Source of the DNA: Octopus vulgaris
Lineage: Eukaryota
Reading direction: 5' to 3'
Assembly (NCBI GenBank): GCA_951406725.2
Contig: OX597816.1
Span: forward strand, 149,854,001-149,918,000
DNA length: 64,000 bases
Shown: positions 5,330 to 62,528 of the stretch, piece after piece
Numbering within the stretch: position 1 is the stretch's first letter
Layout of the letters: each line of letters starts with the position of its first letter
Notes under the pieces: generated by a model
The model's database searches: none
Told to the model about the DNA's origin: nothing
What the model saw: only the letters and a program-made list of their open reading frames with translations
Program-made: the position numbers and the translations under genes

Positions 5330-5512
5330 GAAGATAACATGGATTATGACCCTTCCTCGCTTAATCTAAGTTTAACATAGCAAAGAAGTTTTCAAGAGTA
5401 ATTAACAATAACTTCTCTAAAAACCACAAATATAGAAAACTTTTTAAGATGTATAATTTTAAAACCAGTTACAGCTCTATCAACAATATGAAAATTCTTA
5501 TATCCAACATTC
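5330..5512 (+). mobile_element. Penelope-like RT C-terminal fragment
   Basis: Translates to FNIAKKFSRVINNNFSKNHKYRKLFKMYNFKTSYS, the same segment as in the 20.4-kb copy. Confidence 0.55.
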
Positions 5513-7780
5513 TACTACACCAAGTTCCAGAATGAAAGAAAAAAGATGTATGGGTATGATGAACTGTAAATTCAAACAATATTATTAAAATCATACTGCC
5601 TTTTTGAGACACACTTACAAAAGAAATGTCACAAAATAGCCAAATTTCATTTGGCAAGGGAAAAAAAAAAGCAAAATAAACTTCAACATAAAAATAGAAA
5701 ATATTGGAAACAAAGTGATCATATAAAAATGAAAATAAATGATGTGGCCACTATCCAGCTTTTTATTTACAGTTATATGCTTGTGGCTTGTGTATGCATG
5801 TATGTGTGTGTTTACATTCATGTGTGTGTACATGTATGTCTACATGGGTTCCTCAATTATAAACACAGTGTTAAACATTTTTAGTTTTTTTTAATTTACA
5901 GACAGACACGGGCACTGAATGTGGATGTGTTGTGAAGGTTGGAAATTAATAAGGAATGTGTAGTGTTGGCATGCATGAATAGCAGCACACATATGAGCTG
6001 AGAGGATAAATGGACATCAGAAGAATCACCTGTCATTTACAAGACAGAAGACTGTACTGGCACAGACATGTAATAGGTGAGTGACAAACTGCCAAACAAT
6101 TCAAGTTAAGGAAAAGATGAGAGAAGAACAGGTGAAGTCTGATCTCATGTGCTAGACTTTATAAAGGATTTGACAAGAGGCTGCACTAAGTAGTACAATA
6201 TTATGCTGAAGTAAACCTATGTAAAAACGATGTGAAATAATTATGATTATGATATAATAAAATATAACATAAAGATGCTACTTATCTCTGGATTTGGGAG
6301 TGTTGAAAATGGATGAAAGCTAAAAATCATTGTACATAAAATATTATTCCATCAAATCACTTTCAGAAAATCTGATTCTTATTCTTGACATCAAAGTAAC
6401 CTGAGGCACATAGAATTATATATTCATCCAAAAGACAATTAAACACCTTAACAGTTTGTCATCTAATATTGAATTAGTTGACACTAACTGACAAAATGTG
6501 TTACAAGGGTAAATGTTTAACTTACCCTAATAACTGAAATATTTATTTACTAGTTACTTAATCGTCAAAATTACAAGTGAGTGCCATTCCTATTCCAAGG
6601 TCTTTCACTATATCAACCCAACAGAGTTGCCGTTCTAGAGAGATAAGATTTGAAGAAAAAAAAGACTATTGAAAAGTAATCACAATGTAGAGTAGTGGGG
6701 AGAGAGACAAACAGAGAGAGAGTGAGAGAGAGGGAGTTCATTTTGAAATTTACAATATGAGAAAAAGAAAACTTGAGAGAATAAAAATGAGGGTTGCAGA
6801 AAGGTACTTCTACAGGATATATCAGGCAGTTCAGCTTGGTGGAGGTCTTTCCTTTGAAAAGCTGTATGCACAATAATTGCTGAACCTAGCACTGCAAATT
6901 AATAAACTACTCATCACTTTTAAAGATCTGCTACTGATTGCCTCAGGCCATGGCACCTGTAACAGCCAGGTGGCTTGACCAAATTGAAAGTTGTACTGCT
7001 GGTTACTTTGATATCCATTCTCTTACTAAAAATTAGATATTAGAATAAAATCAGAAATAGGAACGATAAATATAGAAAAAGAAACAAGAATTAAAAAGTC
7101 TGACATAAAACAGGAGATAGTAGATAAGGTGTGTCAGTAGAAAACAGTTAAACTAACGAGGATTCAGGTTCAGCCCTCCCATCTCTAAAGGAAAAAAATG
7201 ATGTCAAGAAGTACAAAACTCTCCATGCTCTATAGATGTTAAAGAGTAAATATGTTAAGAAAATGAAACAAACAAGAACAAAAAGTTAAGATGAGAGGAG
7301 ATATGTACCTGTGTTTCAGGATTAGCTTCCTGAGTGACAGAGTCACTGAAATAAGAATCAGAACCATAATATATATGTGTGCATGTACGTATACATATAT
7401 ACATGTATACATACATATATCATACACACCCACACAAATACTCACACACAAAGAAATGCAATGTCAAGTCTTGGACCTTTAATACTTGATGGTGTCATAG
7501 GGATGCCATTGTGACATAGACATGTCTTGGTTAATTTTTGACCTGCCAGAAGCCATACCTCTTCAGGTCTGACCACAGCTAATTTCCTCCATGAAGAGAG
7601 ATAGGCAGAAAGAGAGGAAGAGAAGAATCAACCCTAAGACAAAACTAACACCTTATTTATCTATTCCAAGAGGATGTAAGACAAAGTTGAATGCAGTGAG
7701 AGTTGAACTAAGAATGCAGGGAACTAGAACTATTACAATAGAGAATCAATTCAATGCTCTAATAACTCTGCCAATTGGCT

Positions 7781-7815
<35 letters not shown>

Positions 7816-8135
7816 TCCACTCTGCTGAGTGGTTGGTGTTAGGAAGGGTATCCGCTGTAAAAATCCCGCCAAAACAGTCACAGAAGTCTGATGTAGGCTT
7901 CGGTTGGCCAGCTCTTGTAGTACCGTCCCACCCATGCTGGCATGGAAGTCAGACATTAAATGATGATGATGATGATATATATATATATACTGTCATCTTA
8001 TTTCACTCCATAATTGCCTTCTCTGAAGAGTGGAGAGTTACATAATTGGATTGTTACATAACACTCTGTTGAACTTCAAGTGTGAAACTGATAAGTAAGA
8101 TCAGTCTTAATGGATATATAATGCTGTACACATTG

Positions 8136-8553: not shown

Positions 8554-9252
8554 TCCTTAATCTCTGATCAAACACTACTAGGGTATATAGTCATAGACGA
8601 ATTATAGTCATGCTATTTAGCTATCTCTGTGTGTGTATGTATGTGTGTATGTATATATATATATATATATAAATTAGAAAAAAACCCCACCTTTTATCAA
8701 TTCAAAATGAACAAATTATACCATCTAGAAAATTACATATAATAGAAATATTAAAATTAAAATAACAATAAAAAGTCAATGATAAAGTAAATTGCAAAAA
8801 AAAAAAATAATAAAAATGTATATAATTTGTAGAATAACGGGATCTAATGAATTACATTTAATTTAATTTAAGAATTAATTTGTCAGACAATATATTATCT
8901 AATTATTAGGTGGCTTATTTATTTGTAATATTAAATTTTAAGTTAATTAGGTATTATATTATTTGATATTTCGTCAACTTTGTTATAGATTGTTATATTA
9001 AATCTATAGATACTACACATGTATATTTATTATATGGTTAGCTTATTTAAGGAGTTTGTCTATATTTGAACCATTTCTTATTTTGATTACAATTTAATGA
9101 CTTGTACAAGCTTTGTGTATTTTATTTAATTTTAAAGTATTTAATAATTTAAGTATTGTTTTAGTTTTCACTTATGTATATTTAGTATTTTCATATATAT
9201 ATATCTTAAAGTATATTTATTCATTAATTATTTTATTGTTCTAGTTTATTTT

Positions 9253-9341
9253 TAACCTGATGAGTGACTATATTTATATTGAAGTGATTTCTCTACTACT
9301 ATAATCATTTCTTCAATATAGCCACGAAACACGTGTCGTTA
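9253..9341 (+). ncRNA. Type I hammerhead ribozyme (Penelope-type, palindromic stem III)
   Basis: Stem I UAAC/GUUA; CUGAUGA 9257-9263; long stem II (GUGAC/GCCAC, UAUAUUGAAG/CUUCAAUAUA); GAAA 9326-9329; ACACGUGU palindrome; GUC cleavage triplet 9335-9337. Confidence 0.85.
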
Positions 9342-9434
9342 TTCTACAAATTATATACGTTTTTATTATTATTTTTTCTGCAATTTACTTTATCATTGAA
9401 TTTTTATTGTTATTCTAATTTTAATATTTCTATT

Positions 9435-9562
9435 ATAACTTATAACTAGATCTCAAAAAGTATAAAAATGAATTATCAATATATAATATATTAATATATT
9501 AATTAATATATCATATATTGATAATTCCTTTTTATACTTTTTGAGGTCTAGTTATAAGTTAT
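9435..9562. repeat. 128-bp AT-rich palindrome inside the hammerhead element
   Basis: ATAACTTATAACTAGATCTCAAAAAGTATAAAAA... pairs with ...TTTTTATACTTTTTGAGGTCTAGTTATAAGTTAT. Confidence 0.85.
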
Positions 9563-10919
9563 GTTTTATAAAAATATATATTATTTGTTATTTATGTACT
9601 GGTTTATGTCTATCAATGTTTGAGTTATGTAATAGTGGTTTTATCTCTAATTTATATTTTATATATATATATATAGACACACACATACATACATACACAC
9701 ACACACTTGTATATATACATAGATGCATATACATATCATTATTTAAATCTGCATATCTTTCTAGGAGTGGCTTCTATCCATCAAACTCTATACATAATTT
9801 CTTGTGTATTTTTATCTTTTTGAAGGTGATCTTTTCCATGTATTTAAAAGCTTTCCCAAATAAACATACTCTTCATTTTAAAGGCTCCAAAGAAGATATA
9901 AGGTGATGCACAATTACTCAGCTCTAAGTACACTGCATTTTATCATAGAGACAGCTGTAAGCTAATGAAGTTGATTACATAATTCTTGTTCCCTAGTCAC
10001 TCCATTAATTTTATATTATGATCTGTACTTGCCTAAGACTTTATTTTGAAGCATATGTATATTAAGTTTCAACAGTAGGTTATTAGTATTACTAATCTTT
10101 CTTTACACACACACACCCACACACAAAGTTATATTTTGGAAGACTCATAACTAATAAAGCCTATAAACACACACAGTTGTTGTTTGTTTACAGTTCTCTC
10201 CTTTTTCAAAGCAGTTGTTGTCTGTCTGCATCACCATAGGCACACACAAACATGTATTCTTGTGTTGGTAACAACAAAAGGAAGCAAAGTAAACAAATAA
10301 ACACCAACACATCATTTGCTCACACATTAACTAAAGAAATGTAACAAAAAAAACAAAAAAAAGCAATTTAAAATCAAGCATTTGAAAATATAAACTCACT
10401 GAAAAGGATACAGATTGATGTGGTGAAAATCAGTTTTGGGTAATGTTGACAAATTACTACTACTATAGAGAAAGAAGAGAAACAGACAAACAACAAACAA
10501 TGAAGGTGTTTGTAGGTTTATTACTTTACTAGCTTAAAAGCTGCACTCTGTGCAAACTTTAAACTGGCTCCTGTGGAGGGCTAATTGGGCTTGAGGTCCA
10601 AAACTAAAGAGATCTAAATAGCATGACTATAATACGTCTATAATATCTATGTGCCCTAGTGGTGTTTGATCAGAGATTAAAGACAGATGAGAATTAATTC
10701 TGCAATGCAATCATTCCATTGTTCCAGTCCTAAGTTGAATTCTAACTGTTGGCCAATTTGTCCAAAAGTTCTGATCTCAACGTAAACTTAATGAAGCGAA
10801 TGTCATTTATCTCCCTCTTGATCTCTGATATCATCTGACAAATGCCAACCATGATGGAAGGCAGATATTAAACAATGATGATGATGACACACACACACAC
10901 AAACACACACAGATATGGT

Positions 10920-13458: not shown

Positions 13459-13770
13459 CATTCTGTCATCCATGGAATCATGATAATCATCTATAAATTC
13501 TGGATGAGGCAAATGGGGTTGCCTTCGTAACCGGTGAGTAGGAGTGGCACTTCTTGAAAATTGATTTAAATCTTTCATTTCGTGGCCTTTGAAGCCACCT
13601 AAACGCTGGTCAATGTAAGATGGGTGAATACCACCATGGACTGATGATCGGATGAGGTCATGTGCTGCACGATCAAGTTCTTCTTGTGACATACCACCAC
13701 CAGCTTCTTTGATTTCTTGTTGTAAATATTTTACGTCTACGTATTTCCGGAGACCTTCTTCTTCAAGTAC
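13459..13770 (-). CDS. Cav1: Cav1 exon with DCRD: VLEEEGLRKYVDVKYLQQEIKEAGGGMSQEELDRAAHDLIRSS...DSMDDRM
   Basis: TTTTCCAG acceptor; MSQEELDRAAHDLI resembles Cav1.2 DCRD MTIEEMESAADNIL; candidate donor ATG|GTAAAA (312 nt, phase 0 to 0), or read-through to the stop at 13372. Confidence 0.88.
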
Positions 13771-19849: not shown

Positions 19850-21300
19850 GATGCTATGTAGAAGTGTAATAATCTTTGTATGATTAAGTAGGAATTGTTT
19901 ATCCTGAAACTGTAGATGGGCCAGCTAAGGTTAAGGTGGTCTTTCCAGGGTACCAGTGACTAATGGTTAGAAGATTATTAACAAGGTATATTTTTAGTGA
20001 CAACAATACAGAGGCAAAATTGACAAATACAATGCTAGGTGAATAAGGAGGGAGCTGGTAAGAAGGATGCTCCATGTAATGTTGAGTCCTAGAGTCTCCA
20101 GATGAAGCTGGACAAGAGGGTAGAGTTTTCTCTCTCCTTGCACCTAAAGGGGTGCGTATATTGTGTAAACCTTGCTTCAAATCATTGACTGTTAGGTCTA
20201 TGTAGTGTCTTGTGATGCCATTGGATGATGTGAGGGTAGCTCTGTATACCACAACTTTGAAAGGTAAAAATCCTTCTAGTGAATTGTTAGTATGATTTTG
20301 GCAGTTATAGGCTGGAGTATGGGGTGGAGTCTTGGTAGGTGTATGTCTGTTTCTGTTGCAGTGTGAAATATTGGAAGTAATGTTATCCTAGTATGAATAG
20401 CTAATCTTAATGTTATGGGCAATAAAGACATTATAAAACTTATGGATATTTGAGAAATACTGTCTAATTAGGGACAGGAAACTTTTAGCTATATTAGTTG
20501 TTACATCTAGGTTGAATAGAGGATTGAGCCAGATCAGACTTCTCTTTCTAACTATCTTTGGTTTCAGCAGTGGGACATCCTCAATATACTCTAAATTATC
20601 AGTGAGCCCACTCTTTGCTTATGTCTCGTTATAATAGAGTATAATGATAAACTGGAGATTTTTCTATTGATACCTGTGACTAATTTCTTATTATATGCTG
20701 AGTTCCTCAGCATGTAAACTTAGACTTCAAGCTAGACAAATACTATCCCTACAGAAAATCTATAAACATGTTTTCTGCAGGGATAGTAGCTGTCTTGAAG
20801 TCTAGGATAATATTTAGTTAAATTGGCAGTAACAGTTATCTCAGGTTGAGCTTTTTGGAGACGCTTATAAAATTCTTCCTGAATTCCACCAGAGTGTGGC
20901 TACTCTCATTACTTAAGATCGCCAGGCCATTGTATAGGGTCAAGCTGTGAGAGTACATTTTTTTCTAAAGTATTCAGAATAAATATCTTGACAAGGTGAA
21001 CCTGCAAGCTGAACTACAATGCCACAGAACAAGTTGATGACAGCAGCACAGTACTCCTGCTATATCAATCCAGTTGTCCTTCTGGTATCAAAATTGATAA
21101 CATCAAGAGTATATATACTGACAATGCCTATCTCACTCTCAGAAGGGTTAATTAGCCTGCATTTAGAATTGGAAAGAAAGTTGTATTTGTGGTCCTTAAA
21201 AGTAATATATGGGAAGTCCACATATGATGGTCCACATAATCAATTTTTAGGAAAGTGGTTAGCTTCTTTGCTTCCATCTTTGTGTTGTTGCATGTTGGAA
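19850..21300 (-). mobile_element. Degenerate Penelope-like retroelement (RT plus GIY-YIG)
   Basis: Minus-strand peptides ITFKDHKYNFLSNSKCRLIKPSESEIG, RKRSLIWLNPLFNLDVTTNIAKSFLSLI...IKISYS and VYRATLTSSNGITRHYI; many stops and frameshifts. Confidence 0.8.
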
Positions 21301-23228: not shown

Positions 23229-25280
23229 CAAATAAAAAGTAACTTTTTGGACACAAATCTTTCAGTTGACCTCTGTCAGAAATGTCAGAGTTATGGCAAT
23301 CAGATTTATTGGCACCTACAAATTCTTTTATATTCTATCTATAACGATAAATGGCTAAAGAAATACTCATCTGCTAAAGCCTAAACACATAAAAACCCAA
23401 ACCAAAGGACATGCATTTCTTTGAAAGTCTTTACTCTTCAACATGCTTTTGTAAGAAAAAACCCATACAACTATATATGGCAGAGATCTATATAAGATCA
23501 AGCTATATAGCTATACATATGAATACTTACATATATCAGTCTTCAATAATTTTGTTGTTGTAATAATAGTAGCAGATAATGATGACATTTAGACAAAAAT
23601 AATAAGTAACAACTTCTGATTTAACTACTTTGTGCTAACATACTACCATACAATAGCTATAACTAACACATGCATTATAGTACACTGAAACAGCTCTATG
23701 TAAATATAGATGCTGACATCTACTATTATTAATTAATACATGCAACAAGGGTAGGAGACCTGAAGATTTACAGGTCAGAGTGAAGTACCTGACTGGTAAC
23801 CTAGTGGTATAAAGACTTATGGCTTAGGATCCTACAGTTCTGAACTGAAGCTATATTCATGATCTGATTTAACTTTCAACTGAACTCATATTTCTTAAAT
23901 TGGTAATCTGTACACTTGTAGATTCTTTTAATCTATACAGATTAAACCAAACTTAAGAGTGTACAGACTAAAATAATTAACAAATTGATATTTCATAACA
24001 ATGTATATGATAATCGACTTGTTTAAAAAGATGGTATTCCTTTATGATATCATTGGAGAGAGAGAGAAAGAGAGAGAGAGGGAGGGCAAGGAAATCAAGG
24101 ATTACAGAGAAGGGAGTTGAAGAGAGAGGTTATAAAAATGAGAGTAATGTAGACCTATACCTCTAATAAAGGAATAGCAGTCCAAGTTGAGTAAAATTGG
24201 AGGAAATAGTGAGTTGTAGAAGTGGTTCCTGTTATAACAGCACATAATTTAAATGAAGCATAGCATTTAGGTGTCTATATTGACCAGTGCCATTCTATCA
24301 TGGAAAATGGCATACACACACCACAAATAACTTTAACAATATGTTTACTAGTGAAAAAGAAAAAAAAAATCATTGAAACAGTCATAAGTTCAGTAATGAA
24401 AAGTTTAAATATTATAAACCCAGCCCATTTCAGGGTTCATAAAATTGGAGTTTATCATGATTTTAAACTGTTCTAAGAAGATGGAAGACATACTATTATA
24501 ATCTGAATAGAGTGCTAATCTATCCTAGGTTGGTTTTCTCAAGCAGTTGCTCAGACACATTTGAAATCCAGAACATGATCCATCACATGTAGTTATTTTG
24601 TTGAAAAGGCCCCCCTCCCACATAGTTTATTGTAATTGATTTATTTGAAATTAATCAAAATTGTTACTAATTCATGACTTCAACTTGACTATTTGCAAAA
24701 TGGTATAGGTTTTGAACATTTAGATGTTTGCATATTGCTGCAATTGGAATATTTTACAACTGCTTTGAAGCTAACCAAAGTTAAGTGTTGTAGGAACAGC
24801 ATCGTTGCTGAAGCAAGATTTGAACTCATATGAAGTTAATGTCAAGCTTTGTAGCCACAACTATGTGTGTGTGTGTGTGTGTAGGTACATATACACAAAC
24901 AAACAGTATTCAATGTCAAGGGTTTGCAAGTTTATAAATATTGCAGCTGGTATCCTGTATCTAGTTATTTGAATTCCCTGACCAATAGACAAGATGATTT
25001 TGGTGTACATGCTTCATTCAGTGGGCATGCTGTTCGGTTCCTGCATGAACATTCAGCTTCATGTCAAGTATCTGGTAATAGGTAATCTTAACTGTGTCTA
25101 TTGAACAACTCCCTATATTTTTGTTTTTGTGGGAAATATCTAATTTTAACTTAAGGTCAATCTTGCCTATATTAGACCTAACATTGAATGAAAAGTGGGG
25201 TGCAGACAAAATGACCATCCTGTGCCATATTCTTCAGGTGGTGCCCTGGTTGGGTTTATAGATAATCTCATCTTTAAACC

Positions 25281-26444
25281 TGTGGGATGACATCAGCGGC
25301 TGGGGAGCTGACTGGAAGAGGAAGGACGCGCAGGTGACATGCGCACAAGTAGGGGATGATTGCGCCCTTTTCGATCGGAGAAGCCGTGATTGCAGGATGT
25401 GTCATTACTTCGACAAGGTGATGGATAGCAGCAGCTATTTTTAGCGTTTTGGGATGGGCCATGTGGAAAGGTATGTTACCACCTGACAGGTCTGCGTTAA
25501 CAATAGCCATTTGGAGGGAGTTAAGGATGGGCATTGCTGATGAGATTGTGAAGATTTTGAACAAGATATTTTTAGAGAGGGGTCCCGTGGAAGAACTGCT
25601 AATGGATAATGGGGCGGCATTTTGTTCAGAAGCGTCAAGGGATATGCTCGACTGGTGGAAAGTGCGTTGCTTGTTCAGAGCAGCGTATAGGCCGAGTGGT
25701 AACGAAATCGTAGAGAGGCACCATTGGACAATCAAGGCCATGGTGGAAAGAGGGCACATTTTGCTGCTGGAAGCAGTTTTCTAGTTTAACATGCCTCCCC
25801 GATCCGGACAAGCTGAAGAATCTGTGCCACACAGAGCAGTATTTAAATATGAATGGAACATCCCAGTAAAGCACCAGAGTGCCACGAGGAAGAGAAGGAA
25901 TCTGCCTGCATGAAAATAGGGGAGGTAGTTTGTGTTAAGCCACCGAAGGCGCGCAGTACATCTCAATGGAGCAGAGGAATGGTGACAGCAGTCAATTCCA
26001 GAAACAACATCTCTGTGGATGGAATGCCACATCATGTTTTGGACCTTCGCAGGATTGTTGCTTTGTTGCATGATGATTGTGGAGAGGAGGAGCCTAGCTT
26101 CAGGAGATCTCGATGCGTAAGGTGGCTGCCCGGTTGGATGGTGGACTTTGACGTGGAGTAAGGGGGAAGTGATCTTTAAGATCAGGGAGGTGGGTGGGAT
26201 GACATCAGCGGCTGGGGAGCTGACCGGAAGAGGAAGGGCACGCAGGTGACATGTGCACAGGCGAGGGATGATCACACCTTTTTCAATCGGGGAAGCTGTG
26301 AGTGCAGGACATATCAGTGCTTCGACAAGGTGAGGGATAGCAGCTGCTATTTTTAGTGTTTCAAGACAGGTCATGTGGAAGGGTACGTCTGCGTCAACGA
26401 AGAGAAGGTAGGTGTCTTACTTCTAATCTCCTGCATTCACTACA
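25281..26444 (+). mobile_element. Internally deleted LTR retrotransposon (Ty3/Gypsy-like integrase relic)
   Basis: TG...CA ends; 5-bp TSD AAACC (25276-25280, 26445-26449); direct repeats about 25281-25500 and 26193-26444; purine tract before the 3' LTR; rve core ELLMDNGAAFCS...AYRPSGNEIVERHHWTIK. Confidence 0.92.
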
Positions 26445-26519: not shown

Positions 26520-27330
26520 GCAGTGGGGGTTGACAGGATCCTATGTTAACGTGAGTTTCTCATTTTGTTTCCTAAAAGGTTTAAAAGAATCAGTACTAAA
26601 GTCTAGAGTGATGCCTAGAAAATTACTTTAAGGTTACTGTCTAAGGTTAGGGATCTAAACATCTCTATAATGTCTTTTCTTAACCTATCTAATATGTATC
26701 CATTAGAGATGGCTAGAGTGTCATCCATATTTAGGCCAAACTAGTGGAGGTGAATGTTTTAAAAACATCCACAACATATAGTCCAGTGAGATAATAGATG
26801 CCTATGTTATTGACTGAGCCTATACTCACATTAATATTACAGTTTTTTGTCAAAGAGCAAATTTTTTGTAGTATTGAATGTGACCTCTAAGTCTCTGTCA
26901 CTTATAGGAGTACATAGCATAGTGGAGCACCTTAGTAAGTCATGGGTATCTAGTATCAAAGGGTAAAACCGAGGATATCAAACAGAGTGAACCTTGTGTA
27001 TTTTTGAGTCAAGAGATAACCTAGTAGGTGTTACTTCATTAGGCAAGGTTAGAGGATTTCCAAATGCTAATGTTATGTATAAATATTTTCTTACTGATGA
27101 GTCCTGTTTCTGATTTGGTGGTTTATTAATCTACATTTAGAGTTGGTTGTAAACTTACTTTAATGGTCATTCATGGTGATTAAAGCATTGCATTTAGATA
27201 GTATTTCAGTCTGTTGTTATATCTAAGCTTAAGTTTGTGTTTAGTATCAGTATTTACATTGTTGTAAGTTTGGAGCTTAGAATAATTTTAGGTAATATTG
27301 TAGAAGTCAGTTTCTATATGAAGTAGAAGT
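26520..27330 (-). mobile_element. Degenerate Penelope-like RT fragment
   Basis: Minus-strand remnants LFDI, FGLNMDDTLAI (GLYRDDGL-like) and FLGITLDFSTDSFKPFRK. Confidence 0.65.
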
Positions 27331-29829
27331 GGAGTCGTCTCTACCAGCTCAAATGGATAATTGGAAGCAAATAATTGGTAACAACATAGGAATGGTAGAA
27401 ATCAAGTTCAAATAGTGATATGCTAACCACACTGCTTCCATCACTGACATGAGAAAATAACAGTTTTGTCTAATTAAATATGATGGCAAAAGGAGAACAT
27501 CAACTATCAAATAAAATAGAAAAACTGAGATAATGTTAGCTATGTGGGGCAGAAAAGATAACCAAACTGAATAGTATCAATGCTTCATCTAAATATTTAA
27601 AAGCACATGATTTGAGTTTTTAGGCAGATGTCACCATTTTGATAAGTAATTATTAAAATTTTAGAAACCCATTACACCACCAGATTAGTTATACTTGGAG
27701 AGGAATAATAAATGTGTTAATTCACCTGTAATCTACATTCTAGAAACTTTTAAATGTAGCCATGCCTTCCAAGAAATCTTCTAGTAATATAAACTATTAC
27801 AACTATTATAGAACTTCCTGTATCACTCCAATATAAATGTTTCATACATTTTTTTGAGATCACCTATCTAGTTCCATGCTAAACAACTATTAAATTACTG
27901 GTAACATTTATAAATGTCAATTATAAGTATTAATATTCCATGTATTTTGCAATTCTACTAGTGTAAGGGAAATAATTTAATAGACTAGCTATTAATTATA
28001 TTCCTTATATTGTATTTTACATGAAAGGAAGAAGCTGCACATGAAAATTTCGAGCTATATTGCCATGTGAGTATACAGAATTACATTAAGATCCCTTTGG
28101 AATTTTAATACTTCTGGGAGTTGTCATGTAACTAATTAGTGAGACTATACTTGAAGACTATTAATCAATACATATATACATATATTGTAAGCTAAAAACT
28201 TTACCGTTACTCTGAGTTTAGTACTTGTGACATTTGGACAAAGATTAAATGTGAAACTCGGAGTACTGTTTAGTGTAGTTTTCAGATTCCATTGAATAAA
28301 CATGAAACAAGACTTGTCTAAATCACTGATAATAACTGAAACAAATTCTCAAAAGACTGGAAAACAGTAAGTTTTCTCAATATGTACACATATCATTTTA
28401 ATGTCCCCTTTTTCATGCTTGCAACAGTCAATATTTTCCCTAGTCCCTAGTACATGAACAACATACACACATATTTAGGTGTCTAGAAATATTGAAGACC
28501 ATAATAGTAAGGGATCAGATGTAGAATTGCAGAATTTTTTCTATTTTCTGCTGACAATTATTTGCTTGTACACATTAATTTATGAACACTTTCTACAATA
28601 TGTCACTGAATTGACTTCCAAAAACACAAACATAAGACTACATTTTCTATATATTTTCTACAACACAAATAACCTACTTTTTATTAATCTTTTATAGAAT
28701 TAGTGCTGTAATTTTAACTACAACCCCAAAACATATGCTCTTTCATTACTATTAAATTATTGTACCAATAAGATTGGAAGGAATATATTTTTTTAGCATA
28801 TGAGAAGTATAGGAAAAATCATATACAATTCATTATGGCTCTTTCTCTGAACATTCTTATAATTTCTTACAACTCTATGGGTGTATAAGTGTAGTAGAAA
28901 AGTAAATGTAATAGATGAATAAATGGAGGAGACAGGCATCAAAATAATAATAAACATTTACTGAATGTAACTGATACAAACGTTTTATGAAAGTGAAGAT
29001 ATTATCTGTCTTTGTATGTACATGGTGTATTATTAGTAATTTGCTCCTCACAATTTTCCTAATATTGCAGTTTAAATATATAACTTCAATATATTTTCTA
29101 TTTAAATATCTGCAAACACAGACGCATATGTCTGTGTGTATGTGTTCATCTATATGTATCTATGTATGCATGTTATATATATATATATATATAAACACAC
29201 ATATACACATTATCATCATCATTTTAACATCCACATTTACATGCTTGTATGGGTTGGACAGAATCCTTTTGTCAAGCCTCATTTCTTTTCCAGGCAAGGG
29301 AATATTTTCCAGAACATGGAAGACTGGAATTAAATGACATTACTTGTAGGATGGTAACACTTATTTACAGCTATTGTGTGTTATCAAGACAAAGAGACTC
29401 TCATCCCCCACCTATATAAATACATACACACATAACAGGCTTCTTTTAGTGTCCAGCTACTACACCCACACAAAAGGTTTTGATCAGCCTGGGGCTATAG
29501 AAAAAGATACTTGCCTAAGGTACCATGCAGTGGATCTGAACTTGAAAAAACACACATACACACACATACTGAAGATAGTTGCATTTATTGATTCCAAAAA
29601 ATACTTATTAACATAACTATGGAGAACAATCCTACAACTACATAGTCACCTACAAAAGATCATGCAAGTTGCCTGAATTCTGAATTTATATTGTTCAGTT
29701 TGTGGTTACTTTCAGAATGGCAAGGACTCAATCTGGATTACAAAAGTGTGCATTTTGTGTATTTGTGTGTATAGCCACACACATGTACACACTTATGTAT
29801 TATTTATATATATCGGGGGGAAAGAGATG

Positions 29830-34584: not shown

Positions 34585-35526
34585 AAATGTTATTTTCTTG
34601 GATGAGTCATCCTTTACCTTATTTCTGACCACCAGCCAAGTATATGTGTGGAGACAGCCAAGAAGCATTTGACCCAAACTGCCTTCTTCCATCTGTTAAA
34701 CATGGAGGGTCTGTGATGGTCAGGGGGTGGGTGGGCTATATCTTGGAAATCTGCCGGCCCAATGGTTTCCTGTTATGGCAGAATTAATACTCAAGACTAT
34801 TTAAGCATTTTATCTGATCAGATTCATCCTATAGTTGCAGAACAGTTTCCGGAGGGAAATGCAATCTTTTAGGATAATAATGCACCAATTCACACATCTA
34901 AATTTGTTATCGAATGGTACAAGGATATTCTAGTGAAGTTGAACATCTTATCTGGCCACTACAGTCCTCAGATCTCAATATTACTGAACATTTATGGTGC
35001 ATTTTAGAAAAGTTAGTTTAGTTAGTTAGTTAGTTAATTTGGCTCAAAAGCAAATAGCAAGGCCATGTAGGGGGACATGGAGTTAAGTACAGGGTGGTGT
35101 TCATGTAAAGAGTTCAGGCCACTTGAGGTCCAGGGAGGCTTTGAACAAAGCGGTCGTCGGCATCTTCACCATCTCGTCTGGCAGCTTGTTCCACGGATCC
35201 GCAACCCGGACGGAGAAAGCTCCTCTCCTTCGATTGAGATGAAATCGTCGCAGGTAGAGCTTTTCGGAATGACCCCGCAGCCGACGCTCCGGAGCAGGAG
35301 TGAAGAACAGTAAGGAGTCGATATCCTCCACCATCGTCACTACAAGAACTGGAGACTGTTTTAGCTGAAGAATAGACAAAAATTCCTTTGGAAACAATTC
35401 AAACTTTGTATGAGTCCATACCTCATAGAATTCAAGCTGTAATTACTGCTAATGGCGGTCCTGCACTATATTAAAATAAATTTGTTTGAAATTTTAAGGT
35501 GTTTCCATTATTTTGTCCAATCCTTG
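34585..35526 (+). mobile_element. 5'-truncated Tc1 (DD34E-type) transposon relic
   Basis: NVIFLDESSF, VKHGGSVMV, DNNAPIH, DLNITEHLW, RIQAVITANGG; TIR-like end GGTGTTTCCATTATTTTGTCCAATCCTTG followed by TA; interrupted by a LINE. Confidence 0.88.
35011..35310 (-). mobile_element. Young 5'-truncated CR1/L2-clade LINE 3' end nested in the Tc1 element
   Basis: LRGHSEKL...FSVRVADPWNKLP...FKASLD C-terminal motif; short 3' UTR ending in a (TAAC)n tail; CpG-rich. Confidence 0.85.
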
Positions 35527-44564: not shown

Positions 44565-45735
44565 CAGGGTATCCAGGAATTAAGGCAACCAAAATTTTGG
44601 GCTTTAATAGCTATCAATAAAATGTAATAAGATATGAAAATTATATATCTTTATAAAAGTTTAGTGTGTCTTCTTTTTGTTTCAGACTAAATTAATTCAG
44701 ATTTATGTATTAGATAATGGCTATAAACTGAAATACAATCATAACCCTCCACAAAGGAGGTGAAAGTAATATAGCTATAGCAAAAAGGCTTAAAATTGAC
44801 TGAACAATAGTCTGGAAAATTGTCCAGAAATTCCAAGAGACTGATTCCACTACTGATTGACCTGGATGTAGCCAAAAAGAAGTATGTGGACCTCTCAGCT
44901 TATCAAAAGTATCAGAGAAAAGATATGGTGAAATCTTTATTGTTCCATCAGAAGACTAGCTGCCACAGCAAAAATAAGCAGAACATTGATGTACTGAGTA
45001 TTGAATGAGGATCTCAGGACCCACCTCTACAAGATGATCCATTATCATGAGCTCATGCAAGTTTATAAGGCCATGAGACTGGAGAGAAGTCATCATATCC
45101 TGCATCAGATTGATGAAGGCACACTGCCCAACCTGGTGTAAATTGATATCAAAATCCACAATCAGTTATGGTTTGGGTAGCTGTGACAGCTACTGGAAGG
45201 TCTCCCCGCATTCTTGGGCCCTTGGGTGTTAAAATTAACACCCAGTGATACATTAGTGACATTCTGGAAGTTGAACTGCTTCCATGGGCAAATGAGCACT
45301 TTTAAGGTGCATATTGGAGCCTCCAATAGAACACAACAGACACAACACTGGATTCAGAAAAAACATTCCATCGTTCATAGGCAAGGATGTTTGGCCTTCA
45401 AGAAGCCTCAATCTCAACCTGTTGGATTTTTCTGTTTGGTCCATTTTGGAGTCAAGGGTCTCAAGCACTACTCATGCTCTGCTCGATGCTCTAAAGGCAA
45501 AACTACATGAAGAATGGGCATTGATTCTGCAAGAACAGCTGTGTACCACATGTGAAACATTCACACCTAGATTTAAGGCTGTGATTCGAAACAGAGGTGG
45601 TCGTATCGAATAAATGTGGTAGTATCATAATTGTCTTTCCTTTACTATTGCATTGCAATGCTCAGACCAAAATATACCAAACTTTGCTTCGACAAAATTG
45701 ATAGAAGTTGGTTGCCTTAATTTTGGGACACCCTG
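44565..45735 (+). mobile_element. Tc1/mariner-superfamily transposon (DD37D/maT-like), decayed transposase
   Basis: TA flanks; 28-bp TIRs CAGGGTATCCAGGAATTAAGGCAACCAA and CAGGGTGTCCCAAAATTAAGGCAACCAA; SVMVW, WPSRSLNLNLLDFSVW, RFKAVIRNRGGRIE* motifs. Confidence 0.9.
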
Positions 45736-46691
45736 TATACAGCCATGATAACAGCTACTGATGGTAATGAAAGATGTTATACAGGACACATGGGGAAAAT
45801 ATCTTCATAATCAGATACAACCAACATATATTCATTTAGGTTCCAAGATAAAACGAATTCCATTCTTCTATCTCAATATGTCTGGTTGTTAATGGATAAG
45901 TGAAACCCCAAACAGTCCTATAATCTGGAGTATTATGGATTCACTCAAGTGGCACTTAGATGTAATTATCTGAGAATTTCTATATTTTAACACAACAGCT
46001 TGAATCACTGAATAAGAAATCTTAAATTTATTGTTTTGTTGCCACAGAACATAATACATATTTACAATTCATCCAGACCCAGACCCAGACAAAGTAACCT
46101 TCTTTGTCATACATCATTTGATTGCAGTTCATTCCTCACTCTCCAGGGAAGTAACTTTCCACCCTACTACAAGGATTATACCTATATACATTGGACAAGC
46201 TACACCAGCCACTAGACCATTGTTTGACTGATTAAAGTTAGGCTAACCAGTGTTTCCTATTAGCCTACACCAAGTTGTTTTCATTCATTTCCTTGTCACC
46301 TGAGAAGGATCACACAATATAAAATGGTTGCTCCAAGTAAATATCTACTACAAGTACTAAGTACATTTTCTCTTGTTTATATCTCTAAATGTATGTGTGT
46401 GTGTATAGCATAAGAATGAAAAATATTCACACACGTGTATATGTATAAACTCATATCTGTTTAAACATATTTTGTTTAAAAATTTAATATCTTTTTACAA
46501 GTAATCACTATCATAAATAATCTGTAATAAATTCATTGCTGTATTATGTCTTCATTTCAGATAATGTCTGGTACTACTGGTAACCACTTTAGGCTGGTTA
46601 CTAATTCGTTTAAGAGAAACAGCAATAAAAGAAAGCACAAAAGCAGTTAGTTGTGATGAACTTTTAAAATAAAAAGTCACCATTAAATAAT

Positions 46692-57750: not shown

Positions 57751-58920
57751 ATAAGCATGCTCTATAAACATGTTTGCAAGGAGATTCTTAGAAAATAGAA
57801 TATAATAGTTCACTATTACAGAGTTGGCAGAATTCTTTGCCTTTAACGTATGGGAATATTAGTCTGTTAAATAAGAATCCAATTACTGAAAATAATAACA
57901 TTAATTTAGCTAATACTAACCATCCCCCTAGAAATATTAACAACAAGGTTATTGTCTCTGAAGTCAATTCCAACAGAATTAAGTTTATGTCTAGTAATTC
58001 TAAGACTAAAAACTCTATATACCAGTGTAAAATTACTTCCAGTACTGATGTCTTTTTTTTATACAGGTAGTTCTTCTTCTCAATTATCTAAAAGAATTTC
58101 TAATCATTACTCTACATTTAGGCATAGTAATAAATGCGACAGTACAGGGCTTAGTAAATTAATTTGGTATCTAAAAGATCATAATAAACAATTTAAGTTA
58201 GATTGGTTGATTCTCTCCATTTCATTCCCATATGATAAAAGCAAAGAATTCTGCCAACTCTGTAATAGTGAACAATATTATATTCTATTTTCTAAGAATC
58301 CCCTTGTAAACATGTTTATAGAGCTTGCTTATCGATGTAAACATTGGTAGAAACATACCTTTAGTTCATATAAGTGATATCTACCAGTCTATACAATTTG
58401 AACATTGGTTTTTCTTACATTTCACTTCCACTAGATATATCTATTTCCAAGCCTTTAAGCTTTTATTTTAATTCACATATTGCTCTATATTTCCCCTTTA
58501 TTAGTTTTCTGCTTATTTCTTTCCTTTACCCCTTCTCTTTCTATAGGCTGCCTTTGACGTTATAAAAAAAACGTTTAAAAAAACTAAACAGCATTCTGTT
58601 CATCATTATACACATCCATCACATTCTGTTAAAATGTCTTACTGATGAGTTTGGTTTCTTTCTTTCCTTCCCTGATGAGAAGATTACATTGTTTTACACC
58701 ATTTTATTCCTTTTGGAATAATACCAATGTTGTCTTTGAAACATGTCGGAAGTAGAAGAATTTGCATAACACCTGCGTTTAACTCTATTTATTTATATAT
58801 ATTATACAAAATATTTCACATCAACCCAGAGTTTCTACCTTTACAAACAGGGTGTTATGTCATTATTTGTGTGATTTTTTGCTGCCCTGGTAAGTGTTTA
58901 TTTATTTCTTTTCATGTTAA
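57751..58920 (+). mobile_element. Penelope-like element 3' portion (GIY-YIG endonuclease relic) with inverted 5' segment
   Basis: KNSIYQCKIT...FFYTGSSS...KRISNH...CQLC...CKH across a poly-T frameshift; 57751-57857 is an inverted copy of 58224-58332; downstream hammerhead. Confidence 0.85.
58667..58752 (+). ncRNA. Type I hammerhead ribozyme at the 3' end of a Penelope-like element
   Basis: Stem I CUUCC/GGAAG; CUGAUGA 58672-58678; stem II GAAGAUUACAUUG/CAAUGUUGUCUUU with inner UUAUUCC/GGAAUAA hairpin; GAAA 58738-58741; ACAUGU palindrome; GUC 58745-58747. The stem II closing pair is G-U rather than G-C. Confidence 0.75.
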
Positions 58921-58949
58921 TTGTAAACAAGGGAAAAATACACACATCC

Positions 58950-60298: not shown

Positions 60299-60824
60299 AC
60301 ACACCCATCTATCGTTTAATTAACTTGTGTTATCTGACAGAAGCATTTTCTGATAAAAAATGTAAGAAAGAGCAATTATGCAATTTAATATGTTGGAGTT
60401 GTTTTGCTTTTAGATAAAGCTAATAGTGAGTCAAGGTAGCAGAAGCAATAGTAATTTGGATACATATGCACACATACATATATATACATATACACACACA
60501 TACATATGTACACATGTGCACACACGCACACATAAATACAAAGGTTTTGGATAGGAAATAATGCTGATTCAGGAAAGAAGGAAGAAGAGACTGGTGGAAG
60601 ACTGACGTGAAGTAACATGCAAGGAAGTTTATCTGCTGCCATAGCAGTAGCAGCAAGTTTGATACAAATACAAGCACAAAGAGGAGGTGAGAGTAGAAGA
60701 AAAAAAAAAGATAGAGAGAGAGTAAGAAATAGAGAAAAAAGGTGAGAGAACCAACATTGATGGTAGCTTTACACAGCTGTCTAAACGTGATCCTCATTAG
60801 CCTTATTAGAAAACGAAAACTTAC

Positions 60825-61029
60825 TACCGGCTGGGGGAACAACTTGGTCCAGAAGTTTTGGACTGGTTCGTTTCCAGATTTTCTTTATCACAGCTCTAAG
60901 TTCCTCATTTGCTTGGTCTATGTTTCCCTCAGTTTTGATTTTGAGGGATGTGCGTACCAAGGCAAACAAGGTGGCATTAAACATAACTGTTCCATCACTG
61001 TTAAGTGGCATGTTCATACTGACTAAACG
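60825..61029 (-). CDS. Cav1: Cav1 exon, pre-IQ: [68 protein letters not shown]
   Basis: Inside ORF 60781..61155; TTTTCAG acceptor, GTAAGT donor; 205 nt, phase 0 to 1; diagnostic Cav1 pre-IQ sequence. Confidence 0.97.
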
Positions 61030-62528
61030 CTGAAAATAAATATAGAAAGACAAACAAATGGATAAAGAGATATAGAGATAAATGAGAGAAAAGAGAAGAG
61101 AAAAATGAGATGACATGCAGAAAAATCTCTCTTGAAATGATCTATCAAAAGTCACACTGGATGCTTGGGTTGCCAGTAGTGCCAGTATGGTTTCAATTAC
61201 ATCATTAACATGATTAAAACACCTAGTTTGCTGTAGCTCACAATTTTTTTACAAGTAGGGTCAATTAGAAAGAGGAGTAACTCAACTAGTACATGGTCAG
61301 TGGCCTAGAAGGTCATGGCGGGACCAATGATATCTGATGGCCCTCTCCCTCCAAAAACAAAACAGAAAATAAACAAAAATTCTCTTCCCTTGCATTATTT
61401 CGTAAAGGTTTAAGGTAGTGAACTGGAACAATTGTTAGAATGTTGAGAAAAATGCCTGTTCCAACTCATGTTTTGATTTCAAATCTTGCAACAGGCAACT
61501 TCACCTTTAATCTTTTTGAGGTCAATAAAAGTCAAGAACTGGGATCAATGAAATTGATTAACCACCTCCTCTCAAAACTGCTGACCTTGTGCCTAAATCA
61601 GAAATTGTTATTTTACAAAGGTTAGCAAACACTTAGTTCTTCAGTTAAATTTTTGTGTCTTTTACTAGGACCTTTCTATTTTTTCAAAAAGATGAGTGGA
61701 TCATTTTATGTGAGCTTCCATTTAAGATAGTTAGGTGTGATAAGAAGGAAATTTAGTTGCTATTTCTATTTAGCAGGTGTGGTGGTCATGTAGGTACTGC
61801 CTTGTTAGCTTGTAGAGAAAGAAGTAATGGGAATTGTAGATACACATACTTTTCTCAAGTAATATATTCCATGGGTTTTGAAACTGATTATTTCTAGAAA
61901 TTTTCAACTAGTTTGCTCCTGCAATTTTCTAGTTTCAAGTAGCTTGTTCCAAGTTAGAGAAAAATGGTTTTCCAAAGAACTTTTGTATTATCCCTTTTAA
62001 TGAGGTCTCCTTTTGTGTTTGTATGAGTGGGTGAATGATAAGATGTGTGTGCGTTGTTGGCAGCAATATTACAGGTAAATAATACTGATGTAATTGCAAT
62101 GTATTTTATCAGGTGTATCATTTTACCTGTAGTTTAAAAAAAAAGACAACTGGGTGGGATTTTGGGTTTTATTATACAATATTATCTCACTGTATATATT
62201 GACACTGATCAACACATGATTACATTTAACCCTAGTTCTTGATGGGTACTAGATTTTTGTCAACCCCAGAAGGACAAAAGGCAAAACTGATCTTGTAGGA
62301 GTTGAATTTAGAACATAAGAGCAGGAACAAACACTGTAAGGTCTGCTGACCTAACAATTCTGCTAACTCATCACCTTGGTTCTACAAAAAATAAACCATC
62401 TTTATGGACTTCTTGTTGACAATTCTTATTCATTAGATTTTGGCTGCTGAAACTTTTCGCAATAATACAGAACATTTTCAGTTTCTTATGTGAATGACAT
62501 TCTGTACTTTATAAGCATTTTGCATCTA

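Follow-up and report, generated by a model that had tools for sequence, protein, structure and literature searches.

A unit of about 1 kb in the genome of Octopus vulgaris is probably the 5'-truncated 3' end (pseudo-LTR) of a Penelope-like element (PLE) that inserts into (TA)n, carrying a complete hammerhead with a stem II of 62 nt, together with a partial copy in inverted orientation whose start coincides with the predicted cut site. The unit lies in a stretch of 64,000 nt (contig OX597816.1 of assembly GCA_951406725.2, positions 149,854,001 to 149,918,000), which we call the window and whose own numbering is used throughout (Table 1). Its G+C content is 19%, its longest stop-free frame has 57 codons and its longest frame from Met has 25, in agreement with an earlier sequence-only reading that had described an AT-rich unit of about 1 kb without open reading frames between (TA)n runs. 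A six-frame search with a Hydra-type profile and an ORF scan found no reverse transcriptase (RT) or GIY-YIG ORF in the unit, as is expected for a truncated or non-autonomous copy.

Table 1. Features of the unit, of the second hammerhead-bearing element and of their surroundings (positions in the window)
Feature	Position	Strand	Basis
Left (TG)/(TA)n microsatellite, target tract	8628-8671	.	sequence
Inverted 5'-truncated copy of the 3' end	8670-8839	-	self-alignment
T-rich non-coding body, 3' UTR-like; 5' end abuts the inverted arm	8840-9252	+	composition; six-frame profile search
Type I hammerhead	9253-9341	+	descriptor search, fold prediction, base-by-base assignment
Long stem II	9264-9325	+	predicted fold: helices of 3, 7 and 9 bp, separated by a 1x1 mismatch and a 6x3 internal loop; loop of 13 nt
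Post-cleavage sequence, common to the inverted arm	9338-9437	+	self-alignment
124-nt palindromic insert	9438-9561	.	61-nt arms, 95% complementary
Right 3' tail ending TCTAATTTA	9562-9654	+	alignment
Right (TA)n/(CA)n microsatellite	9655-9706	.	sequence
Hydra-type PLE relic	5350-5708	+	endonuclease profile
Hydra-type PLE relic	20083-20633	-	endonuclease profile
Hydra-type PLE relic	24995-25141	-	endonuclease profile
Hydra-type PLE relic	27302-27457	+	endonuclease profile
Hydra-type PLE relic	45730-46121	+	endonuclease profile
Hydra-type PLE relic: endonuclease C-terminus, 3' UTR, hammerhead, (TA)n end	57751-58945		
Frameshifted C-terminal GIY-YIG endonuclease fragment, Hydra-clade type	57837-58350	+	profile and protein alignment
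Second type I hammerhead	58667-58752	+	descriptor; fold z -4.75
Voltage-gated calcium channel alpha-1 gene exons, spanning the window	60781-61245, 13460-13770, others	-	IQ domain PF08763

The hammerhead was assigned base by base. On the plus strand, the core CTGATGA (CUGAUGA in RNA) occupies 9257-9263 and GAAA occupies 9326-9329; stem I consists of 4 bp (9253-9256 with 9338-9341), stem III is the palindrome ACACGTGT at 9329-9336, and C17 is position 9337, with cleavage predicted after C9337. All conserved core positions (CUGANGA, GAA, A15.1-U16.1 and H17) are present, and the core is predicted to be surrounded by three helices, with stem I open: stem I of 4 bp, stem II of 19 bp and the palindromic stem III. 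The intact motif of the sequence-only reading, with its core, stem I, long stem II and palindromic stem III, is thus present in every part.

To set the chance level, we searched both strands with a loose and a strict version of a hammerhead descriptor that allows stem II to reach 120 nt, and used block-wise dinucleotide shuffles of the 64-kb window as the null model. The real window contains two matches, against 0.05 loose matches per shuffled window; the strict descriptor had no match in any of 300 such windows. When the unit alone was shuffled 3000 times, one loose match and no strict one appeared. Two other candidates, at 8023 and 1996, did not satisfy the stricter descriptor and were dropped. 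An Rfam search, which the earlier reading had proposed as a check, returned no hammerhead at the gathering score and none at E up to 10. However, Rfam also missed all eight of eight control loci with short-stem PLE hammerheads, and this null result is therefore uninformative and carries no weight against the motif. A chance match in AT-rich DNA, for which the silence of Rfam and a core left unformed in the minimum-energy fold might speak, is thus largely refuted by the strict shuffles of both kinds and by the blindness of Rfam to short-stem PLE hammerheads, and we regard its probability as negligible. In other words, the hammerhead at 9253-9341 is a real PLE-type type I motif.

We also computed how readily this hammerhead might fold. 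The active monomer fold sits 6.1 kcal/mol above the minimum, whereas for a double-hammerhead fold the gap is 3.3 kcal/mol per dimer; pairing of two stem III palindromes (ACACGTGT) into a homoduplex was estimated at -10.3 kcal/mol. In the minimum-energy fold, positions 9335-9344 pair with the core, which is not formed. These calculations suggest that cutting by the monomer would be poor and that the ribozyme would perform better as a dimer joined through its 8-nt palindromic stem III, or with the help of a protein. The metazoan PLE hammerheads of Cervera & de la Pena (2014, PMC4209133) are alike in their predicted activity as dimers, as well as in the stem I of 4-5 bp, the G10.1-C11.1 pair and the palindromic helix III; in most cases they are described as occurring singly in truncated PLEs, and at times as two opposed motifs. 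It has also been reported that metazoan PLE hammerheads with a palindromic stem III are weak in vitro and act as weak dimers, and, for the PLE protein PAc, that its hammerhead needs protein (Frangieh 2024).

What sets this hammerhead apart is stem II, which is long and structured and has roughly fourfold the typical length. The domain of 62 nt has 19 predicted pairs and a folding energy of -13.2 kcal/mol (z -3.73). For comparison, we took the best 80 of 178 Hydra-type loci in metagenome contigs, located with 9 of 162 proteins; the tight alignment of these nine replaced a first one that was too diverse for the locus search. With the same descriptor, 40 of the 80 loci yielded 46 hammerheads, 39 of which are distinct and a few of which belong to other families in the flanks; the remaining 40 loci had no match. 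In all 46 the stem II domain measures 10-24 nt, with a median of 14.5, against 62 nt here and 59 nt in a second hammerhead of the window. ACACGTGT is a short palindromic stem III of the canonical PLE kind, whereas stem II departs from the canonical 4-8 bp. By our own count, no Hydra row in File S2 of Craig et al. (2021, PMC8557442) has a stem II of more than 26 nt, and the main text of PMC4209133 describes a helix II of 7-8 bp at most, in comparison with 19 bp in three helices in our unit. Two rows of the same File S2, both for PLE-X1 of Selaginella, reach about 50-54 nt by our count, and a long stem II region therefore has a precedent among PLEs; PLE-X1, however, is an endonuclease-less element of a plant, targets 28S rDNA and has a non-palindromic stem III, all unlike the unit. 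The 'long helix II' of viral hammerheads was rejected as a precedent, since it comprises merely 6-8 bp in the published account (PMC13725137). Our literature search found no report of a long-stem-II form in animals, and Lunse et al. (2016) may describe long variants.

Self-alignment of the unit revealed a feature absent from the earlier reading: positions 8738-8839 are an inverted match of 9337-9437, with 94% identity over 102 nt. In the sense of the element, this left arm begins at C17, or at the base with which the predicted 3' cleavage product starts, and extends over 168 nt up to TCTAATTTA-(TA)n, while the cleavage site and (TA)n are about 195 nt apart on the right when the palindromic insert is excluded. 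The inverted arm lacks a core because it starts at the cut site. When the arms were compared without the insert, 98 of the first 104 columns were identical, followed by 48 of 94 in the tail; this divergence indicates that the arms come from non-identical templates. The two tails have in common a terminus of 9 nt, TCTAATTTA, beyond which their alignment scored no better than shuffled sequence, and they differ in length and sequence in a way that is not a simple extension (an optional tail of 30-40 nt is a trait of PLEs). Related outward termini had been claimed for the unit, and the claim is correct for these last 9 nt and fails for the rest. Therefore, the 'related termini' are two outward-facing 3' ends, probably of two subfamilies, and are explained by the inverted truncated copy and not by true terminal repeats.

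Composition and insertions were analyzed in the same way. The body (8840-9252) is 51% T with 18% G+C, and the T-rich strand switches at 8839/8840, as opposed 3' ends would predict. The palindromic insert, which the earlier reading had likewise not mentioned, shows an apparent TA duplication and is missing from the left arm, whose sequence matches the empty site. It is likely a later, separate MITE-like insertion or a fold-back, and no other copy of it was found within the window. We also considered that the entire unit might be a MITE, the derivative of a TA-targeting DNA transposon, bounded by short terminal inverted repeats and containing a hammerhead by accident. Its two ends are indeed inverted over 9 nt and set in TA; however, on the right side the long inverted match lies inside the unit (9337-9437), outside those 9 nt the tails are unrelated, the strand switch fits two opposed 3' ends and the hammerhead is of PLE type, which together make a MITE very improbable.

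Next to these internal features, we looked for further copies. Self-comparison of the 64-kb window showed no second copy of the unit, and within the unit self-comparison and the descriptor search showed a single hammerhead and no tandem repeat. A family-specific hammerhead pattern had no match in metagenome contigs and none in viral contigs. Among the 24 rows listed from a sequencing-run index, 20, from 9 studies and under 4 organism labels, contained parts of the unit, none of them as much as half. Ten rows shared a fraction of 0.23-0.42 of it, which may stem from orthologues or from paralogues, and smaller shares are no evidence; none of the 24 listed rows was an RNA run containing parts of the unit.

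The second hammerhead, which the sequence-only reading had also lacked, belongs to a neighbouring relic at 57.8-58.9 kb. It starts about 320 nt past the stop of the endonuclease fragment, (TA)n follows about 200 nt further on, and its stem III is the palindrome ACATGT. The predicted stem II of 59 nt consists of 6 bp, a 1x1 mismatch, 6 bp, a 12x3 loop and 7 bp. Both long stems therefore have 19 predicted pairs in three helices laid out alike, with no stem sequence in common: a 1x1 mismatch separates a short first helix from the second, and an internal loop, which in each case has 3 nt on its 3' side, separates the second from the distal one. Pairwise comparison found little shared sequence beyond the core, and the flanks of the two elements showed no significant similarity. 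On the 5' side of the relic, 57751-57857 is an inverted piece of 107 nt that stops short of the hammerhead. A second copy of CTGATGAG lies at 58645-58652, ahead of this hammerhead and 27 nt from its core.

The endonuclease fragment of this relic had 1710 relatives at E up to 0.001, including an Argonauta protein; these came from a full protein scan, as word-indexed protein searches gave nothing useful. It aligns to proteins that combine RT and endonuclease, of which the RT part is absent from the relic. In members of the Hydra clade, the C-terminal endonuclease has a CxxC ahead of the conserved E and a CxH behind the conserved N, and RWK and DKT are found among the RT motifs (PMC8557442). In the consensus of the neighbour, CxxC precedes the E and CxH follows the N, which is the endonuclease part of the Hydra-clade signature, whereas the unit itself has no ORF by which a clade could be assigned. 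The neighbour thus combines the C-terminus of a Hydra-type endonuclease with a hammerhead whose stem II has 59 nt, which supports the PLE reading of the unit. Because the two elements share no significant sequence, the Hydra clade for the unit rests on analogy, and by this analogy its driver was likely a Hydra-clade PLE.

Similar relics occur elsewhere in the window. Penelope-type (Hydra-type) endonuclease remnants were detected in four places at iE < 0.001 (about 5.5, 20, 45.7 and 58 kb), the number that the earlier reading had given, and more weakly in two more, at about 25 and 27 kb. A decayed hammerhead with a short stem II, an altered core and a Hydra-type stem III is seen at about 28222-28266 (plus strand), 0.8 kb behind the relic at 27302-27457. 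The window also contains an integrase-core relic at 25422-26161 (plus strand; PF00665, E 5e-6) and, at 35101-35442 on the minus strand, a sequence without a Pfam hit that we take, from its likeness, to be probably a relic of a LINE 3' end. A splice donor marks the end of the calcium channel exon at about 13460-13770, and the hammerhead at 9253-9341 is therefore likely intronic and antisense to that gene.

The anatomy of the unit corresponds closely to that described for PLEs. Inverted 5'-truncated copies and (TA)n targets are typical, and nearly all Hydra families are found in (TA)n (Craig et al. 2021, PMC8557442). The unit shows the traits of endonuclease-bearing (EN+) PLEs, with an inverted 5'-truncated copy beside its 5' end and a hammerhead near its 3' end. 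With Hydra-clade PLEs in that account it shares the inverted 5'-truncated copy, as in Penelope-13_HM, and a (near-)palindromic stem III, as well as the (TA)n target and the position of the hammerhead, 50-200 nt from the 3' end. Insertion into (TA)n is, however, not diagnostic of the Hydra clade, because it is common to Naiad and Neptune. Taken with the Hydra-type relics in the window, this anatomy supports the proposal of the sequence-only reading that the hammerhead is of PLE kind and that a (TA)n-targeting unit was mobilised by Penelope-like enzymes. Known octopus families were tried as parents. Hydra-1_Obim was rejected on account of its hammerhead and 3' end, which differ from those of the unit. 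The octopus Naiads (Naiad_Obim, Naiad_Ovul and Naiad_Omin; PMC8557442) are alike in the (TA)n target and a long AT-rich 3' UTR; in a motif search that can miss line-wrapped text, and by eye, their consensus 3' ends contained neither the hammerhead nor the terminus of the unit, and they were rejected as well.

The T-rich body bears on whether the unit descends directly from an autonomous element. The 417 nt upstream of the core gave no match to the Hydra endonuclease profile in six frames. The 36 Hydra-type distances measured from the end of the endonuclease to the core, along the 3' UTR, were 72-525 nt, and 417 nt exceeds 35 of them. Given this range, the body could be the truncated 3' UTR of an autonomous element, and the long AT-rich 3' UTRs of octopus Naiads allow the same. 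It is also possible, though on our estimate doubtful, that the unit belongs to a non-autonomous, retrozyme-like family and that its right part (about 680 nt without the palindrome) is one whole monomer, copied in trans by a PLE protein that went once around a circular or tandem RNA. This would account for a stretch without coding remnant that is longer than nearly all Hydra-type distances, and retrozymes have been reported to be derived from pLTRs (bioRxiv 2026.07.22.740005). In addition, the start of the body, GGATCTAAT, shares TCTAAT with both tail ends, a weak hint given that 9 of 403 starting points in the body would do so, and one that was noticed post hoc in a short match of 6 AT-rich nucleotides. 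On the other side stand the single hammerhead, the lack of a tandem repeat and the several hundred AT-rich nucleotides of octopus Naiad 3' UTRs, which show that long non-coding 3' ends occur in autonomous PLEs.

The comparison with retrozymes, which the sequence-only reading had drawn, can be made more precise. Animal non-LTR retrozymes (PMC7229834; bioRxiv 10.64898/2026.07.22.740005) resemble the unit in being non-coding, in their low G+C content and type I hammerhead, and in their proposed origin from and mobilisation by PLEs. However, they are described as tandem units with a hammerhead in each repeat and circles of 170-400 nt, a range that 680 nt exceeds, whereas our unit has one hammerhead and an inverted arm. 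The comparison thus breaks down on tandem organisation, and the unit is not a retrozyme as defined.

The inverted arm begins within 1 nt of the predicted cleavage site, and it includes the complement of C17, which leaves an ambiguity of 1 nt. This start may be a genomic trace of cutting by the ribozyme in the cell, as suggested by a single junction that was spotted post hoc. Alternatively, the insertion of the PLE end may have been the same and the coincidence due to chance, or to a pause of the RT at the base of a hammerhead helix, with a ribozyme that is inactive or irrelevant in the cell; we hold this to be possible but no better than tentative. The minimum-energy fold agrees with a pause in placing a helix exactly there, through the pairing of 9335-9344 with the core, and metazoan PLE hammerheads cut weakly in vitro. 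However, the boundary falls within 1 nt of the scissile bond and not at the predicted outer end of that helix (9344), and the intact core in two unrelated long-stem families of one window suggests selection.

Inversions in related loci have varied start points, which also favours chance or a pause. All three inversions near a hammerhead begin elsewhere, at +44 (L006), at +21 (L045) and upstream of the core (L067), and one of 35 listed boundaries, many of which are microsatellite or divergence edges, falls within -2 to +3 of the cleavage site. That one boundary belongs to L011 (1-107 against 2537-2643), where a 5' pseudo-LTR copy with 91% identity begins 2 nt past H17. It coincides with the start of the contig and may be owed to a cleaved template or to chance. 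Partial copies of one family (L047:1797, L065:2706 and L071:1962-1995) begin 34-40 nt past the cleavage site, where there may be a fixed transcript start or the edge of a tail. For PAc, Frangieh (2024) reported that no RNA-seq reads end at the cleavage site and that cleavage is dispensable in vitro.

Based on these observations and on previous reports that PAc cuts and extends both target strands and begins reverse transcription internally, in the RNA tail (Frangieh 2024), we propose how the truncated PLE end with its inverted copy could have formed. A GIY-YIG/RT protein would cleave the two strands of the TA tract, and the 3' end thus freed on each strand would prime a cDNA from a start site in the tail. 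One cDNA would copy uncut RNA through the hammerhead and stop at 8840, while the other would run off an RNA 5' end made by the hammerhead, giving the left arm of 168 nt. The two cDNAs would then be joined head to head, and the 124-nt palindrome would enter in a separate event. It is also conceivable, though rather unlikely as a combination, that all of this belongs together: a PLE lineage with an undescribed three-helix stem II of 60 nt, a non-autonomous family, about 680 nt in length, to which the unit belongs, and arms that record PLE hammerhead cuts in the cell, which set the 5' end of the RT template.

These possibilities bear on the role of the hammerhead in PLEs, for which cutting in vitro is weak and the report on PAc saw no cleavage in vivo. 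Should the starts of inverted arms prove to cluster at the cleavage site from copy to copy, counting them in the genome would be enough to reveal cleavage in the cell. The length of stem II also implies that descriptors made for short stems undercount PLE hammerheads in this lineage, and some PLEs recorded as having no hammerhead may deserve re-examination. In the combined reading above, long-stem hammerheads would be an undescribed variant that Rfam misses and that short-stem descriptors would miss. If neither the clustering nor the undercount holds, the unit amounts to a truncated PLE end of the ordinary kind whose loop happens to be long.
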